DNA of 64,000 nt from positions 632,464 to 696,463 of the forward strand of contig CAWFJJ010000001.1 of NCBI GenBank assembly GCA_963816185.1, given 5' to 3'. This DNA is from Thermoanaerobaculia bacterium. GTDB taxonomy: Bacteria > Acidobacteriota > Thermoanaerobaculia > UBA5066. This document shows positions 22,066 to 61,785 of this stretch, piece after piece; position 1 is the stretch's first letter; the number at the start of each line of letters is the position of its first letter. Below the pieces are notes generated by a model. It saw nothing but the letters and a program-made list of their open reading frames with translations. It did no database searches and had not been told where the DNA came from. The translations under genes and the position numbers were made by a program.

Positions 22066-23221
22066 TCACGAAATCAACATCGCGTCGCCGTAGCTGAAGA
22101 AGCGATATCCCTTCGCGACCGCCTCCCGGTAGGCGGCCAGAACTCGCTCGCGTCCCGCGAACGCGGACACGAGCATGAGCAGCGTCGAGCGGGGCAGGTG
22201 GAAGTTCGTCAGGAGCGCGTCCACGATGTGAAACGTCGCGCCCGGGCACGAGGAAGAGGTCCGTCTCGAACGCGCCTGCGGCGACCGTGCCGCCGTGCGT
22301 GCGAGCCGACGCCTCGAGCGTGCGCACGGACGTCGTGCCGACCGCGACGACGCGACGCCCGTCGCGTTTCGCATGGTTCACGCGTTCGGCGGTTTCCCCG
22401 GGGATTTCCGTCCGCTCGAGATCCATCCGGTGCTCTTCGACGAGATCGACTTTTACCGGCTTGAACGTGCCGAGGCCCACGTGCAGGGTCACGCGTGCGA
22501 GGTGCACTCCCTGCGCTTCGATCTTCGCGAGCAGGTCGGGAGTGAAGTGCAGCCCGGCCGTCGGCGCCGCGATCGCACCGGGGCGATCGGCGAACACGGT
22601 CTGGTAGTCGATCGCATCCTGGGCGTCCGCGACGCCGAGCGGGCGCCGGATGTAGGGTGGCAGGGGAGCGGACCCGAGGGAGGGGAGATCGTCGAGGAGA
22701 AAAGACGTTTTGCTCCCGTGCTTCGTGAAACGGAGAACGTAGAGGCCGGCTTCGGAGCGAGTCGTTTCGCCGGTTTTCTTAGAAGGTGAATGGGGCATGG
22801 GCTGGGCCCGAGCCGCGCTCGCGAGCGCCACGGCCTCCCACCCCCCTTCGAAGAAAAAGCGCCGTCCCGGTTTGACGCGCCGTCCCGGTTTTGCGAGACA
22901 CCGCCAGAGCTCCTCTTCTTTCTTTTCCCTTTTCGAAGCAAAATCCGAAATCCCCGGTTCCTCCGACATCTTCGAAACCAGCAGGAATTCCGTCCTTCGC
23001 CCCTTCTCGTCCGTTCCGAAAATCCGCGCCGGGATGACTTTCGTGTCGTTCAGGACAAGGACGTCACCCGCGTGGAGAAGCGACGGCAGATCGGCGACCA
23101 CGCGATGGGCGAACGCGCCCGTCCGGCGGTCGAGCGTCATGAGGCGTGCGGTGCCGCGCGGGGCGGGCCGCTGGGCGATGGATTCGGACGGCAGCACGAA
23201 ATCGAAATCCGCGACGTCCAT
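22066..23221 (-). CDS. queA: SAM:tRNA ribosyltransferase-isomerase; frameshift near 22241; motif-associated loop insertions
   Basis: DFDF.LP…[69 protein letters not shown]. Confidence 0.95.
22771..22950. repeat. motif cluster inside queA
   Basis: TTTTCTTAGAAGGTGAA (centre 22780), reverse copies centred at 22851 and 22936. Confidence 0.8.
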
Positions 23222-23259
23222 CCGCCGCATTTTGCACGGCCGCTGTGCGAGACTGACGC

Positions 23260-24875
23260 ATGCGGTCGAGGGCCGGAGTCGTCGTGGGGCTCTATGCCCT
23301 TCTGGCGCTTCTCACCGTCCCGGTTTTTCCGCACTTTCTCTCGCCGAACGAGTTCACGCGCTGGGCGCTCGCCGCGTCGTTCGTCGAGCACGGCACGCCG
23401 GAGATCTCCTCCGTTCTGCCGCTCCTCGGGCCGGCGTTCGAGGATGTCTCGGAGAAAGGCGGGCGCGTCTACTCGAACAAGGCACCCGGCGCGACGCTCG
23501 TCGCCCTGCCGGGGTACCTTCTCGCGCGCCCGTTCTCGGGAGCGCCCTCGCCTTCTTCGATGCGACCGGTTCTGTGGGCGATGCGGCTCTTCGGTGCGAC
23601 GGCGCCCGCAGTGCTGCTCGCGCTCGTCCTGTTCCACGCGGCCGTGAGGTCCGGGGCTTCTCCCTCGCGCGCCGCGAGTGCGGCATTCGCTCTCCTTTTC
23701 GCGACGCCGCTCTTCACATACGGCCTGCTTCTCTTTTCGCACGCCCTCGCCGCGGCGTGCCTCTTCGGAGCGTGGGTCGCGCTCTTCCATCCGGGCGATC
23801 CTTCCCGCGTGTTTCGCCGCGATGTGCTTGCGGGCGCGCTCCTCGGTCTCGCGGTCCTCTCGGAGTACCCGGCGGCCGTGCCGGCGGCCGTGCTCGCCCT
23901 TTGCGCGGTCATCCCCGCGCCCCGGCGCGCCCTCGCCCTCGCCGCGGGGGGTGCTCCGTTCGCGGCCCTTCTCGGCGCGTACGATCTGGCCTGCTTCGGG
24001 GGAGTCTTCGAGCTTTCTTCCGCCCACGAGCTCTCGTCGAGCTTCCGGTCGCTCGCCTCGGCGGGTCTCTTCGGCATCGCCCTGCCGTCTCCGGAAATCC
24101 TCCTTCGCCTGCTCGCGGACCCGTCGAAAGGCCTCCTGGTCTTCTCGCCGTTTCTCCTCCTGTGGCCCGGAGCGCTTCTCTCGTCCCGCGCCGCGTTGCC
24201 TTTCGGGGGCCGCGTCGCGCTCGTGCTCGCTCCTCTCTCGCTTCTCCTCCTCTATGCGGGCTACCCGAACTGGCACGGCGGGTTCAGCGTCGGGCCGCGG
24301 TATCTCGTCGCGGCTCTGCCGTTCCTCGTCTTCCCGTTCGCATTCGGGAAGGGGGGATTCCTCGAGAGCGCGCTCGTCGGTGCTTCGACGCTGGCCGTTT
24401 GCGCGACGACGCTCGCGTTCCCGTTCGTCCCTCCCGGGTTCGCGTTGCCGTGGGGCTCATTCGCGGCGTACTTCTTCGAGAGGGGCTCGACGCTGCCGAA
24501 CGTGTTGCAGATCGTTGCGCCCTCGGCGGCGCGCTTCGTCCTGCCGGCAATCGTGGCGGTCGCGGCGTACTTATCCTTGGAAGGGAAGAGAGAAGAGGAT
24601 CCGAAAGCCGAAGGGGAAGGGTGGGAATCGCTTTTTTCCTTGGAGCGGCGGCCTGCGCATTCCTGGGAATTCTCCTTTCTAAGCAAGTTATTCTTTCTTC
24701 TCCTTCCCTTCTTCTCCAGCGTGCGTACGTCGCCGATGTTTACTTCGAGCAGCGGGGCACGCTCGATGAGGAGATCGCCCGGACCGGATCCCGGCAGCCG
24801 CGTCTCCTCGCCCGGCGCGAGCGGGAACTTTCGCTTCCCCCGCCGCCCTGGCCTTTTCCGCCGGCATCACGCTGA
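23260..24875 (+). CDS. multi-TM membrane protein (GT-C / glycosyltransferase-like); frameshift near 24610
   Basis: Many TM segments, [28 protein letters not shown]-terminal hydrophobic part continues in another frame to TGA 24875. Confidence 0.7.
24570..24715. repeat. degenerate motif pair in the membrane-protein gene
   Basis: TCCTTGGAAGGGAAGAGAG (centre 24578) and CTCCTTTCTAAGCAAG (centre 24681). Confidence 0.55.
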
Positions 24876-24949
24876 TCGAAGGGAGCGCGCCGCCGGGCCG
24901 GCAAAGATCGCGCCGGCGGCGCCGAACGGTTGTATAGTCCCGCGCGCTC

Positions 24950-25579
24950 ATGGGAGAAGCCGCGGGAACGTACCGGAAGCTCCGGCTGCTCGACGGTGCC
25001 GGCCAGGGGCGGGCAATCGCCCGCATGGCGCACGAAATCGTCGAGGCGGAAGGCGGGACCGACGGTTTCGTCCTGATCGGCATCCGCACGCGGGGAGTCC
25101 CGCTCGCGCGACGCCTCGCCGGCGAGATCGAGCGCACCGAACGCGTGCGGGTTCCTGTCGGGGTTCTCGATATCACGCTCTACCGCGACGACCTCTCCAC
25201 GATCGCGGCTTCGCCCGTCCTGAAGAAGACAGAGATTCCGTTCCCGGTGGAGGGCCGCACGGTCGTCCTGTGCGACGACGTGATCTACACGGGACGCACG
25301 GTGCGCGCGGCGATGGACGCGATCCTCGATTTCGGCCGCCCACGGAAGATCCTCCTCGCCGTCCTCGTCGACCGCGGCCGGCGGGAGCTGCCGATCGAAG
25401 CGCAGTTCGTGGGGAAGAACGTCGCGACGTCGGCCACGGAGATCGTCTCCGTCACATTTCGGGAGACGGACGGCGTCGACGACGTCTGGCTGCTCGACCG
25501 CGAGGCCACGGCGAAAGCGGTGCGAGGAGCCTTGGGGCCGGCCGCGCGGAAGCGCCCGAAGCGGCGTTCGAAGAGATAG
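24950..25579 (+). CDS. pyrR: pyrimidine operon regulator / uracil phosphoribosyltransferase
   Basis: [45 protein letters not shown]. Confidence 0.95.
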
Positions 25580-60505: not shown

Positions 60506-60530
60506 GCATCCTGGTGTAGCCTCACCCGTC

Positions 60531-61691
60531 GTGACGAATGTAACCGCGCCCGCCGTCCCGGTTCCGCTCCTCGACTTGAAGAAACAGTACGCGACGATCC
60601 GCGAGGAGATCCTGCGTGCGACGGTCGACGTTTACGAGAGCCAGTACTTCATCCTGGGCCCTCGCGTCGAGGCGTTCGAGAAGGCGGTCGCTTCCTACGT
60701 CGGGGTGAGGCACGCGATCGGCATGTCTTCGGGCACCGACTCGCAGCTCGCCGTCATGATGGCGCTCGGTGTCGGGCCGGGCGACGACGTCGTGACGTCT
60801 CCTTATTCCTTCTTCTCGACGGCCGGCGCCGTCGCGCGCCTCGGCGCGCGGGCAGTCTTCGTCGACATCGAGCCGGCGACGTTCAACCTCGACCCCTCGA
60901 AGCTGGAGAAAGCGATCAGCCCGAAGGCGAAGCTCATCCAGCCCGTCCACCTTTACGGCCAGTGCGCCGACATGGATCCGATCCGGGAGGTCGCGAAGCG
61001 GAAGGGGATCCCGGTGCTCGAGGATGCCTGCCAATCGCTCGGGGCGGCGTACAAGGGTGTCAAGGCGGGAGCGCTCGGCGAGTTCGGAGCCTTCTCGTTC
61101 TTCCCCTCCAAGAATCTGGGCGGGTTCGGCGACGGCGGCATGGTGACAACGCAGAACGACGCGTACGCAACACGCCTTCGCGCCTTGCGCATGCACGGCG
61201 AGACCTCGCGCTATCACCACAAGCTCGTGGGCGGGAACTTTCGGCTCGACGCGCTTCAGGCCGCGATCCTTCACGTGAAGCTGCCGCACCTCGACGGCTG
61301 GGCGCGCGCGCGGCGTGCGAATGCGGCCGAGATCGAAAGGCTTTACGTCGAATCGGGCGGACGCAGATACGAGGAGGGCGGCCTGAAGTTTCCGCGCCAG
61401 GCGGCGGGCCGCGAGCACGTCTTCAACCAGTTCGTCGTGCGCGTCGGAAAGGGCCGGCGCGACTTGTTGAAGAAGCTTCTCGACGAGCGGCAGATCGGAA
61501 ACGCGATCTACTATCCGGTGCCGCTGCACCTGCAGGAGTGTTTCGCCTCTCTCGGAGGCCGCCCGGGCGACTTCCCGGAGGCGGAGAAGGCCGCCGCCGA
61601 AACGCTCGCGCTTCCGGTTTTCCCGGAACTCACGGCCGAGCAGAAGAGTACGCTCGCGATGACCCTCGCATCCTTCTCGCGCGAGACATGA
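60531..61691 (+). CDS. DegT/DnrJ/EryC1/StrS-family aminotransferase
   Basis: VHLYGQ, EDACQ, SFFPSKNLGGFGDGG, NFRLDALQAA, YYPVPLH. Confidence 0.95.
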   Translation: MTNVTAPAVPVPLLDLKKQYATIREEILRATVDVYESQYFILGPRVEAFEKAVASYVGVRHAIGMSSGTDSQLAVMMALGVGPGDDVVTSPYSFFSTAGAVARLGARAVFVDIEPATFNLDPSKLEKAISPKAKLIQPVHLYGQCADMDPIREVAKRKGIPVLEDACQSLGAAYKGVKAGALGEFGAFSFFPSKNLGGFGDGGMVTTQNDAYATRLRALRMHGETSRYHHKLVGGNFRLDALQAAILHVKLPHLDGWARARRANAAEIERLYVESGGRRYEEGGLKFPRQAAGREHVFNQFVVRVGKGRRDLLKKLLDERQIGNAIYYPVPLHLQECFASLGGRPGDFPEAEKAAAETLALPVFPELTAEQKSTLAMTLASFSRET

Positions 61692-61699
61692 GACCGCGG

Positions 61700-61785
61700 C
61701 GAATCTGCTGAGAAAGAAGCGGCCCCTGACGAAAGACAAGCGGACCGCTGCTGGGCCGCCACTTCCCTCACCTTCGAAGAAACCC
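61700..61785. repeat. degenerate motif pair upstream of the groESL promoter, 67 bp
   Basis: ATCTGCTGAGAAAG (centre 61710) … CCCTCACCTTCGAAGAAA (centre 61777). Confidence 0.55.

Follow-up and report, generated by a model that had tools for sequence, protein, structure and literature searches.

Why should a short word recur along a bacterial chromosome as pairs of copies that face each other? The question is raised by a stretch of 64,000 nucleotides (hereafter the window) from the 5.09 Mb genome of an uncultured soil Acidobacteriota. A sequence-only reading of the window had described convergent inverted pairs with a conserved spacing of ~77 bp and unrelated spacers, and had suggested a bipartite site bridged or wrapped by a protein complex over about 7-8 helical turns.

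A polar signal arranged head to head

A PWM scan of the whole genome identified 844 sites, divided equally between the strands (422/422). The signal is polar and ~25 nt long, with a core, TTCTTAGAAGG, and purine-rich flanks. Its consensus comprises an 11-nt core, TTCTTNGAAGG, followed by ~10 nt similar to TGAAGAGGGG, and the surrounding purine-rich tract extends over ~45 nt. Exact copies number 201 genome-wide, against 11 for the reversed word, while the window alone contains 35 matches with up to two mismatches, compared with 5.65 ± 2.6 after shuffling (100 shuffles; largest value 11). Three contigs of 47-88 kb are nearly motif-free, with 0, 1 and 2 sites.

The sites obey a strict polarity rule. 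Of 299 adjacent convergent (+/-) pairs in the genome, 283 are at most 400 bp apart, against 18 of 287 divergent (-/+) ones, and below 160 bp the counts are ~230 and 4. When 29 genomes of the genus are pooled, pairs at 62-92 bp are convergent in 1137 cases and divergent in 17, with 0 for the reversed-word control. Clusters are mostly "+-" (193), followed by "++-" (30), "+--" (24), "++--" (8) and "-+" (2). About a fifth of the sites (158/844) are solitary, and these score lower than paired ones (median 24.6 versus 27.2 bits, p=3e-6). The inverted pairs are thus real and far above chance, and every pair of the earlier reading was found again in the window, at start-to-start distances (d, in bp) ~2 nt below the former centre-to-centre values because the reference point differs. 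The arrangements in the window are listed below; as units they carry no strand.

3442..3703: array + + - -, with steps of 76, 99 and 76 bp; cores at 3442-3452, 3518-3528, 3617-3627 and 3693-3703
22776..22855: convergent pair, d=69; cores at 22776-22786 (+) and 22845-22855 (-)
24574..24685: degenerate convergent pair, d=101 (starts 24574/24675); two mismatches per core
33064..33149: convergent pair, d=75 (33064/33139); exact left core and degenerate right core (PWM 15.1 bits)
36820..36909: convergent pair, d=79 (36820/36899); 5' end of a - strand transglycosylase gene
42057..42283: wide convergent pair, d=216 (42057/42273); lies across the 3' end of a VWA-domain (Bat-type) gene
45049..45135: convergent pair, d=76 (45049/45125); in-frame within ORF 44413-45291 (- strand)
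45385..45476: convergent pair, d=81 (45385/45466); intergenic
48041..48125: convergent pair, d=74 (48041/48115); flanked by convergent genes, the right-hand one being thioredoxin
53734..53868: convergent pair, d=124 (53734/53858); fmt, in the linker between N and C domains
57367..57453: convergent pair, d=76 (57367/57443); in-frame in an MFS/Atg22-like transporter gene, left core degenerate
58380..58544: convergent pair, d=154 (58380/58534); within a PlsC-type acyltransferase gene
58807..58966: second convergent pair, d=149 (58807/58956), in the same PlsC-type gene
61706..61781: convergent pair, d=65 (61706/61771); directly after a DegT-type aminotransferase gene, left core degenerate

The same-orientation steps 3442 to 3518 and 3617 to 3693 are 76 bp each, as previously given, and the degenerate pair at 24574 has GA-rich and TC-rich outer flanks.

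The conserved spacing did not survive as such: ~77 bp lies near a mode, with 41 of 283 pairs at 72-76 bp in a range from 43 to ~400. Spacings are spread widely, with a tail to the right and a lower edge near 62 bp, and display neither a 10.5-nt (helical) nor a 3-nt periodicity. Of the two peaks expected genome-wide, the one at 72-76 bp is present, while the "double" peak near 150 bp is a weak shoulder only (24 pairs at 146-160 bp, versus 29 at 120-145 and 16 at 161-186). Spacing also differs between species at single orthologous loci, from 69 to 130 bp at 36820 and as 70, 81 or 106 bp at 45385. A site bridged at a fixed distance over 7-8 turns is therefore not upheld; given the absence of helical phasing and of conserved spacing at orthologues, any interaction between bound proteins must accommodate distances from 62 to over 200 bp.

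Unrelated interiors between ends that vary independently

The claim of unrelated spacers held genome-wide. An all-versus-all blastn of 156 pair interiors (cores and 10 nt at either end trimmed off, kept if at least 25 nt) returned just 11 distinct related pairs, of which 8 involve paralogous kinases or duplicated parts of contigs and 3 are marginal matches of 15-23 nt. Since the spacers are unrelated throughout the genome, the earlier argument against a simple MITE is supported.

At those core positions that vary, no covariation links the two ends of a pair (chi-square p=0.55 and 0.80, n=150), and complementarity between the flanks of a single element does not exceed that with the flanks of other elements. 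The lack of covariation supports the view that copies act as sequence signals read one by one, and a protein that reads two polar sites would be expected to produce just such a strict head-to-head rule.

The same data bear on a stem of two cores acting in RNA or single-stranded DNA as a processing site, stabiliser or terminator. The cores are complementary, at least 8 core positions are paired in 70% of folded elements, and the strand-symmetric layout would allow a stem in transcripts of either strand. However, compensatory variation is missing, and divergent pairs, which would form a simple stem equally well, are nearly absent. Interiors have a fold z-score of -0.50 versus -0.15 for random genomic pieces (p=0.035), folding energy is not lower with native than with random flanks (-55.2 versus -57.0 kcal/mol), and Rfam gave no match at gathering threshold. 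Thirteen terminator-like matches occur in 32-50 kb of the window, two inside 42057-42283 and none at the other five pairs. We consider such a stem highly improbable.

Sites in genes and their fate among relatives

A point missed by the sequence-only reading is that, by our home-made gene calls, 60% of the sites are located in ORFs and translated; the other 40% fall in the 14% of the genome that is intergenic, a 2.9-fold enrichment. Sites occur even in essential genes, with in-frame reading in LysRS, RNase R, PlsC, Fmt and Alr. All three reading frames are used, on both strands, and 73 pairs lie wholly within continuous ORFs.

The imprint is at the nucleotide level: the cores are written into native codons using very rare codons. 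FLEG tetrapeptides are coded TTC TTA GAA GG in 26 of 59 cases, against 0.03 expected, TTA representing 0.3% of Leu codons, and PSKK is coded CCT TCT AAG AAA in 24 of 39. FLEG itself, with 59 occurrences versus 18-34 for permuted controls, is raised about twofold. In the frame in which A at position 6 gives a stop, C or T is found instead at 62 of 67 sense and 74 of 75 antisense sites.

Some site-bearing proteins carry extra residues relative to homologues or Pfam domain models (LysRS 22, RNase R ~25, AccC ~38). Elsewhere, convergent pairs enclose native, colinear coding sequence, namely in PlsC, kinases, ORF 3344-3638 and Alr. The interior of 58380..58544 includes the catalytic FPEG motif of PlsC, and alignment with a solved PlsC reveals only ~6 extra residues, at the left core. 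ORF 3344-3638, probably an ilvN-type acetolactate synthase small subunit judging by eye from its translation, is neighboured by ilvB-type and ilvC-type genes (Pfam); the array 3442..3703 lies within it and directly after it, the first three sites being in its codons without evident insertion.

Open frames through the pairs also weigh on programmed DNA rearrangement, in which facing signals would direct a recombinase or domesticated transposase to invert or cut out the DNA between them. Such a system would account for conserved ends around unique interiors, the strict polarity, the lower size limit and pairs inside genes, and the genome contains matches to 4 tyrosine and 6 serine recombinases. 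Yet none is linked to the sites, and ORFs stay open through pairs, in 24 of 24 fmt orthologues as in the 73 cases above. Moreover, several interiors hold protein-essential sequence (PlsC FPEG, kinase subdomains), and the frame relations across pairs resemble those of random positions (39 in frame, 17 out, the latter located, by position, at junctions of neighbouring gene calls). Invertons, including intragenic ones, similarly have inverted repeats around a short segment, sometimes in genes, as far as described in PMC10028968. Unlike them, one common repeat is found here at hundreds of loci and several interiors could not be inverted without loss of protein; inverted forms of pair interiors were not seen, in weak data. 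Ciliate internal eliminated sequences and the segments bounded by V(D)J recombination signals, which must be removed for gene function, share the conserved ends, unique interior, lower size limit and a plausible transposon-end origin; in contrast to these, the ORFs here read through and removal was not seen. Rearrangement is thus a very slim prospect.

Copies of the motif occur all along the core chromosome in one Acidobacteriota genus, at 37 to 267 exact cores per genome, and in smaller number in a sister genus; genera outside these two hold 0-2 exact copies (one genome, G030, unpublished). Positions are conserved among orthologues. All four PlsC sites are recognisable by eye in 10-12 of 12 aligned species (for 58807..58966, the left site in 12/12 and the right in 10-12/12). 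In this one gene, core columns at three of the four sites have a mean pairwise identity of 0.89 versus 0.75 overall, and third codon positions within them 0.70 versus 0.57. Between this genome and one of the sister genus, the pairs of RNase R and Alr occupy the same positions with unrelated interiors of different length (63 versus 78 in RNase R), and the left Alr site codes a FLEG peptide common to both genera. Cores are exact across the two genera, while interiors are saturated.

Half pairs and empty sites are nevertheless frequent among relatives. At 33064, between two + strand genes, three anchored relatives show the right half only (two) or the full pair (one). Of 22 other genomes anchored at 36820 (23 loci, one genome twice), 17 retain the left site at 12 bits or more (PWM), with the right site 69-130 bp away in 9 of these and missing in the rest. 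At 42057 the first + site is followed in some relatives by another, 78-93 bp further on (39 bp in one), and at 45049 the 76-bp spacing recurs in 9 of 13 anchored relatives. Four relatives have d=70, 70, 70 and 106 at 45385, the others retaining a lone right half or no site at all; in one contig from a related strain the left half and interior are missing. The pair at 48041 is present only in this genome among 7 compared. In fmt, the right half has undergone at least three gains or losses on the gene tree, with states shared across clades, and the interior contains a TAG and a frame change in this genome only. Taken with the variable copy number, these halves, empty sites and right-half turnover suggest that no single locus needs its pair. 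Whole-unit insertions (48041; ~25 residues in RNase R) and the intergenic enrichment are also compatible with a mobile origin.

Mobile origin, molecular drive or a pair-reading protein

The main rival to our best explanation is a decayed transposon family: fossils of ancient, non-autonomous elements akin to MITEs, REPINs or Rickettsia palindromic elements (RPEs). An element of ~85-150 bp with polypurine terminal inverted repeats would have spread in the ancestor of the two genera, entering genes as well, where in-frame copies alone survived. Interiors would have diverged, deletions would have left half-elements, and the ends would look conserved as present or past transposase binding sites. 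This fits the inverted-end polarity, with sometimes several sites per end, the modal length with its right-skewed tail, the intergenic enrichment, the presence or absence of whole and half units between species and strains, the insertions in LysRS, RNase R and AccC, and the 7-fold copy-number variation. In the accounts cited, doublets are likewise conserved better than singlets in REPINs (PMC3116915), and RPEs reside in-frame in housekeeping genes (PMC10969869).

Against it, element-only duplicates number 0 of 283 pairs, no target-site duplication is recognisable, and a hypothetical empty palindromic target, TTCTTAAGAA, has 0 copies versus 14+14 for the reversed word. A Y1/RAYT gene is absent from this genome and from 24 of 28 genus relatives, existing Y1 genes are not consistently motif-flanked, and convergent pairs 300-6000 bp apart included no conspicuous boundaries of a mobile unit. 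Pairs around native colinear sequence in PlsC, kinases, ORF 3344-3638 and Alr cannot result from the insertion of a unit; half-relics arising independently should be divergent and convergent with equal frequency, in conflict with ~230 versus 4; and exact cores persist across genera while interiors are saturated. We regard this origin as rather unlikely.

Comparison with known families is instructive on both sides. The REP/REPINs of Pseudomonas and enterobacteria are likewise short words in hundreds of copies, mostly inverted doublets at preferred spacing (71 and 110 bp in P. fluorescens SBW25; PMC3116915), with spacers less conserved than ends, doublets more conserved than singlets, and higher-order clusters. 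According to the same account, however, they are nearly all extragenic (14 of 1067 16-mers overlapped genes), their spacers are alignable with compensatory hairpin changes, and a RAYT gene accompanies them, in contrast to the ORF-borne sites, unrelated interiors without covariation and RAYT-less genome described here. A classical MITE, REPIN or RNA hairpin was rejected on the lack of covariation and of a RAYT gene and on the 60% of sites in ORFs. RPEs and intragenic MITEs, as PMC10969869 portrays them, are short inverted-repeat elements translated in-frame in housekeeping genes, and are common to related species as are the pairs here. Their families conserve the whole length and a peptide, whereas here ~25 nt per end are conserved, in three frames and on both strands, and many pairs enclose native gene sequence.

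A different possibility is a self-recognition word spread by molecular drive, as a DNA-uptake signal or through recombination or repair bias, motif-bearing alleles being preferentially taken up or converted so that copies accumulate where the protein tolerates them. The equal strands (422/422), the restriction to one lineage, the three nearly motif-free contigs, the doubled FLEG frequency, the extreme codon imprint and the fmt states common to several clades, as gene flow would give, are in its favour. Uptake signals are not known to act as facing pairs separated by 60-150 bp, which we count against it. The USS/DUS of Pasteurellaceae and Neisseriaceae, as far as PMC2817400 describes them, are also lineage-specific, present on both strands and accumulated in place at tolerant coding positions; an extreme codon imprint, a roughly doubled peptide frequency and genome parts without the word are reported there too. 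Yet that description offers no parallel to the obligatory head-to-head pairing at distances of at least 62 bp, and the density here, ~1 per 6 kb, is ~6-fold below the roughly 1 per kb of known signals. As a full account, drive appears improbable.

Our best explanation, to which we assign a probability of about 0.45, is a lineage-specific REP/uptake-signal-like word, kept at the nucleotide level and read as head-to-head doublets by a putative protein. This sequence-specific protein would read double-stranded sites singly and act on sites facing each other, two bound protomers presumably interacting, which would explain the doublets, the small + + - - arrays, the ~62 bp limit and the preferred step of 72-78 bp. 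The DNA between sites would be irrelevant, be it spacer, inserted junk or native coding sequence, and individual loci would gain and lose sites through codon choice, deletions and insertions of 6-40 codons. They may be kept by a benefit to the cell or by molecular drive. In behaviour, the word would seem to resemble uptake signals, Chi sites or REP/BIME sites more closely than transposon copies. Hundreds of head-to-head pairs, even in essential genes, thus point to a putative pair-reading protein in this lineage.

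A lineage-specific word and its pairing rule

The genome under study (G000) is prokaryotic and comprises 5.09 Mb in 30 contigs, with 68% G+C and a marker completeness of 94.9%; relatives of its LysRS carry the names of uncultured Acidobacteriota (at 76% identity) and of Thermoanaerobaculia MAGs (at 57-59%). The window, G000:C1:632464-696463, has the gene content of an ordinary core chromosome (ilv/leu genes, glnA, pyrB/C, a MoxR-Bat operon, thioredoxin and ksgA), with ftsK, two HU/IHF-type genes, fmt, rsmB, a PlsC-type acyltransferase and groES/EL also encoded, and a Pfam search of the 64 kb returned no transposase. 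The motif that a sequence-only reading had reported in this stretch is real. Its core, TTCTTAGAAGG, in which position 6 is free and position 10 is G, A or T, is flanked 5' by (G/A)AT plus a purine-rich tract of ~25 nt and 3' by ~10 nt resembling TGAAGAGGGG. Matches to the core with at most two mismatches number 35 in the window versus 5.65 +/- 2.6 in shuffles, and 201 exact copies occur genome-wide versus 11 of the reversed word. A 29-column weight matrix, at 16 bits or more, finds 844 sites, split 422 and 422 between the strands, versus 83 with the reversed matrix. Keyword searches of a limited literature collection found neither the motif nor such elements in Acidobacteria described.

Every other genome of the genus (28 of 28) has 37-267 exact cores and each of the eight sister-genus genomes has 1-31, while 26 genomes of eight other genera of the family hold 0-1 and 16 genomes of the order's other families (including G030, flagged as unpublished) hold 0-2. 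Within the bin, the contigs C18, C6 and C12 (57, 88 and 47 kb) carry 0, 2 and 1 sites versus ~2 per 10 kb elsewhere, and may be accessory, plasmid or foreign DNA. The motif-densest part of the genome also contains two HU/IHF-family genes of the window, without an evident tie to the motif:

52817-53092, minus strand, HU/IHF-family gene
55674-55958, plus strand, HU/IHF-family gene

The arrangement of the sites is far from symmetrical. Where a plus site is followed by a minus site, the two lie within 400 bp in 283 of 299 cases; where a minus site is followed by a plus site, this holds for 18 of 287. The cluster types of G000 ('+-' 193, '++-' 30, '+--' 24, '++--' 8, '+-+-' 5, '-+' 2, with 158 solitary sites) thus indicate that plus sites stand to the left of all minus sites. 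Paired sites score higher in the weight matrix than solitary ones, and among the latter a degenerate partner is found on the inner side in 13%-21%, versus 1-2% on the outer side. The rule is repeated in every genome of the genus: at start-to-start distances (d) of 62-92, the 29 genomes contain 1137 convergent pairs (10-105 per genome), 17 divergent pairs and none in the reversed control. The inverted cores carry inverted inner and outer flanks, which is the layout of terminal inverted repeats. We put forward that the motif is a maintained polar DNA word, read as head-to-head doublets by a putative protein, a reading to which we assign a probability of roughly 0.45. The earlier proposal that a protein reads two sites is probably right, its reader being likewise putative. 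A maintained word of this kind would be functionally closest to REP/BIME or uptake-signal-type sequences, and it may be kept either by a benefit to the cell or by molecular drive.

Spacing and interiors of the pairs

The spacing distribution has its mode at 72-76 (41 of 283 pairs). Its lower edge lies near 62, and on the long side a shoulder reaches ~100 and a tail ~400. Two peaks had been expected in a genome-wide histogram, near 77 and 155; the first is present as the mode, the second only as a weak bump at 147-157. A conserved distance of ~77 bp, as originally claimed, is not what we find. Among species, d at the 36820 locus takes the values 69, 79, 93, 109, 112, 113, 115, 116, 125 and 130, and at the 45385 locus 70, 81 and 106; it is constant where the interior codes, being 76 in 9 of 13 relatives at 45049. 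These differences at orthologous loci imply that the ~77 bp represent a preferred unit length and not a ruler. Moreover, a periodogram of 225 spacings gave no 10.5-nt or 3-nt signal above a jitter null, which speaks against the bridging over 7-8 helical turns suggested before. Histone-like wrapping was rejected, given the spacing without periodicity and no histone-fold gene (PF00808). In multi-site clusters, same-orientation neighbours follow in steps of 24-51 or 72-90 bp.

The 16 pairs with d=91 stand out as a spike, which is largely due to Ser/Thr kinase paralogues, in which the pair surrounds the VAIK...HPNI segment. Kinase paralogues with a d=91 pair are also present in other genomes of the genus. 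Examples in G000 are:

C24:616381-616482, convergent pair in a kinase paralogue, d=91
C24:620204-620305, convergent pair in a kinase paralogue, d=91
C23:5304-5405, convergent pair in a kinase paralogue, d=91
C4:8674-8775, convergent pair in a kinase paralogue, d=91

That the spacers are unrelated, as first noted, was upheld. In all-versus-all blastn, related interiors belong only to paralogous genes or duplicated contig regions, and when compared with the whole genome 46 of 283 match elsewhere, the matches inspected among these being kinase paralogues, duplicated contig regions and one unrelated repeat. The interior of the wide pair C14:32940-33163 is another dispersed repeat of ~100-200 nt, with more than 15 matches in both orientations, many of them on C24 and C8. 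Several stretches of C14 match C24:150000-180000 at ~89-97% identity in inverted order, which looks like a second strain's copy of that region in the bin.

Inverted cores could also be maintained as an RNA stem, and an extended hairpin through the purine/pyrimidine flanks with G-U pairs was considered; however, native flanks bring no gain in energy over random ones. The folding of interiors is barely stronger than that of random pieces of the genome (z of -0.50 vs -0.15), the left and right cores show no covariation at two variable positions (chi-square p=0.55 and 0.80), and complementarity of the flanks is no greater within one element than between elements. The window has no Rfam match at the gathering threshold. 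Terminator-like matches in 32-50 kb number 13 vs 11.2 expected; the wide pair 42057-42283 encloses two of them, the remaining five pairs of that region have none, and the two promoter-like matches (sigma-70 -35/-10) likewise fall outside any pair. The lack of covariation and of a flank effect, the weak folding, the empty Rfam search and the few terminator-like matches within pairs together disfavour a hairpin as the selected feature, and we consider an RNA stem highly improbable. The pairs are not terminators, promoters or known RNAs.

Pairs inside genes and their codon imprint

According to our own rough codon-bias gene caller, whose calls cover 86% of the genome, 366 of 610 sites (60%) lie inside called ORFs, and 73 pairs lie inside continuous ones, at least 60 nt from the ends. 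In 11 of 12 proteins tested, Pfam domains run on both sides of the pair in the same frame; pairs fall within or between the domains of LysRS, RNase R, UvrA, a GltD-type oxidoreductase, biotin carboxylase, HisA/F, PheT, a GT4 glycosyltransferase and CcmF. The sites use all three reading frames on both strands, and at position 6 C or T replaces A wherever A would give TAG or TAA. The continuous domains, the use of all frames and the stop-avoiding position 6 indicate that the pairs are translated. Polypurine arms that would keep six frames open ('stop-free arms') were rejected, the elements leaving 1.98 of 6 frames open versus 3.50 in random DNA. In the locus L026 (G000:C1:27803-29335), SBP_bac_3 and BPD_transp_1 domains occur in one ORF read across a motif pair, which either fuses two genes or reflects a stop codon missing from the assembly.

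The effect on the protein differs from gene to gene. Measured against homologues or domain models, LysRS has an insertion of 22 residues, which carries just the left half, and RNase R one of ~25 residues. The first PlsC pair flanks a native FPEG segment; aligned with the solved T. maritima enzyme, this protein is longer by no more than ~6 residues, which lie at the left core. The small ORF 3344-3638, which we read from its sequence as possibly ilvN-like, contains three sites and no evident insertion. The left site of Alr encodes the peptide FLEG, present in both genera; LEG is a conserved motif of Alr. The sites also leave an imprint on codon choice. TTA accounts for 0.3% of Leu codons (399 TTA in 1.37 million codons), and yet 26 of 59 FLEG tetrapeptides are written TTC TTA GAA GG, versus 0.03 expected; likewise, 24 of 39 PSKK tetrapeptides are written CCT TCT AAG AAA. 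FLEG itself occurs at about double the frequency of its permutations.

These observations bear on the main rival, an ancient transposon family of which only the ends survive. The system may well have arisen from such a family, which nevertheless fails to account for convergent pairs that enclose native coding sequence and for the creation of the motif by rare codons; as an account of the present sites we regard it as rather unlikely.

An additional scenario was splicing or translational bypass of the pairs, prompted by inner arms resembling GTRAGT...YAG and by a split fmt. In G000 only, fmt (window 53191-54256) is broken inside the pair 53734-53868, by a TAG (53755-53757) and by a frame change. 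However, the 24 orthologues in other genus genomes are all continuous and read through, and a further locus with a Formyl_trans_C domain lies at G000:C5:285999-286280. In the alr locus L211 (G000:C24:399500-400900) a 1-nt frame change falls at a GGG run inside the pair, while L212, its orthologue in the sister genus, is continuous, which hints at indels introduced by the assembly at homopolymers. Across pairs, 39 are in frame and 17 out of frame, a proportion resembling that of random positions, and all 17 out-of-frame cases lie, by position, at junctions of neighbouring gene calls. Splicing and bypass were rejected on these grounds.

Turnover, known repeat systems and biological meaning

A sister-genus genome shares this architecture, and its RNase R and Alr carry pairs where those of G000 do; the RNase R pair has d=78 there vs 63 in G000, and the interiors are unrelated. 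In the PlsC-type gene, the four sites are recognisable by eye in 10-12 of the 12 species aligned, and pairwise identity of the cores is 0.89 in three of the four versus 0.75 overall, a conservation statistic from this one gene. Despite this conservation, the turnover of sites is high. The 57367 locus occurs in full, right-half-only and empty states among 10 species, and the 48041 pair is found in G000 only, six relatives being empty. Its interior is without a homologue in the 28 other genus genomes (best matches of 20-43 nt, E ~1e-3 or weaker), and cut-and-paste of this unit was rejected. Of 24 relatives, 23 have the left site in fmt, and 11, like G000, have the interior together with the right site. 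These interiors are mutually homologous, yet their carriers turn up in each of the three clades of the fmt tree, which implies at least three changes on a single-gene tree possibly affected by recombination.

The family is not a classical MITE, as had been argued from the unrelated spacers: its copies share no homology, no duplication is recognisable, and no partner element appeared among the pairs and enzyme families scanned. No target-site duplication is recognisable, filled and empty loci being too diverged to place borders, and the hypothetical TA-type empty target TTCTTAAGAA has 0 copies, so that insertion into a palindromic target with TA duplication was discarded. In a scan of the positions of convergent pairs 300-6000 bp apart, none stood out as the bounds of a mobile unit. 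The genome-wide search for a partner enzyme covered four families (Y1, RVT, tyrosine-recombinase and serine-recombinase). Two candidate partners without a link to the motif were set aside: L185 (G000:C30:282278-285898), a 571-residue ORF that combines a reverse transcriptase domain with a trypsin-like peptidase domain and looks like a defence-type reverse transcriptase; and a small serine recombinase adjoining an IS3-type transposase.

Like REPINs (PMC3116915), the sites form inverted doublets of preferred spacing that are over-represented relative to singlets; unlike REPINs, which are almost entirely extragenic, they are largely intragenic and show no compensatory changes of a hairpin. The Y1 transposase (PF01797) has no match in G000 (94.9% complete) and, among 63 family genomes, is present in 4 of 28 genus relatives, 7 of 8 sister-genus genomes and 17 of 17 genomes of a motif-free genus; of three Y1 loci scanned, two had no excess of the motif. 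With intragenic sites, no compensatory changes and no Y1 gene in G000, this is not a REPIN/RAYT system. Like RPEs (PMC10969869), pairs sit in frame inside protein-coding genes (73 pairs; fmt continuous in 24 of 24 relatives), but they have no conserved element-wide sequence, using all frames and both strands with unrelated interiors; lacking a conserved peptide, the family is not of the RPE type. The likeness to uptake signals (PMC2817400) lies in a lineage-specific, over-represented word on both strands that accumulates in place in coding DNA; that an uptake-signal-type drive produced the motif seems unlikely to us nonetheless.

We consider programmed rearrangement at the pairs very improbable. 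In the thin data available, Logan contigs of four DNA runs (depth 1-5; such contigs drop rare variants), no strand-changing joints are seen, and several skips join different motif copies and are repeat-induced; one contig has 13 nt in place of 45347-45462. Within these weak data (four-run contigs, frame relations and fmt orthologues) there is no evidence of splicing, bypass, inversion or excision. A further proposal, to which we would give little weight, is that the pairs are substrates of a putative lineage-specific DNA transaction by a domesticated transposase/recombinase-like protein, which might pair, nick, excise or invert the DNA or mark it as self. If so, one bacterial lineage would have evolved signals whose ends are conserved and whose interiors are free, forming a system that spans the genome, essential genes included. 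It would be either a prokaryotic counterpart of recombination-signal/eliminated-sequence systems or a new class of doublet-read self-marker.

Dispersed bacterial repeats are commonly divided into selfish copies (MITEs, REPINs, RPEs) and words that a cellular process maintains (Chi, uptake signals, REP/BIME). The present family combines traits of the two. Its facing ends resemble those of a transposon, and its units have a preferred length and are gained and lost one by one; its copies, however, share no homology with one another, the motif is spelled within native sequence by the rarest codons of the genome, and its positions are retained between the two genera. In practice, the motif can also serve to tell contigs of this lineage from others in a bin. 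If a protein does read the doublets, it would act at ~400 places, including LysRS, RNase R, UvrA, AccC, PlsC, Fmt and Alr, and the lineage would be a natural test case for how one stretch of DNA can encode protein and carry a nucleotide-level signal at once.
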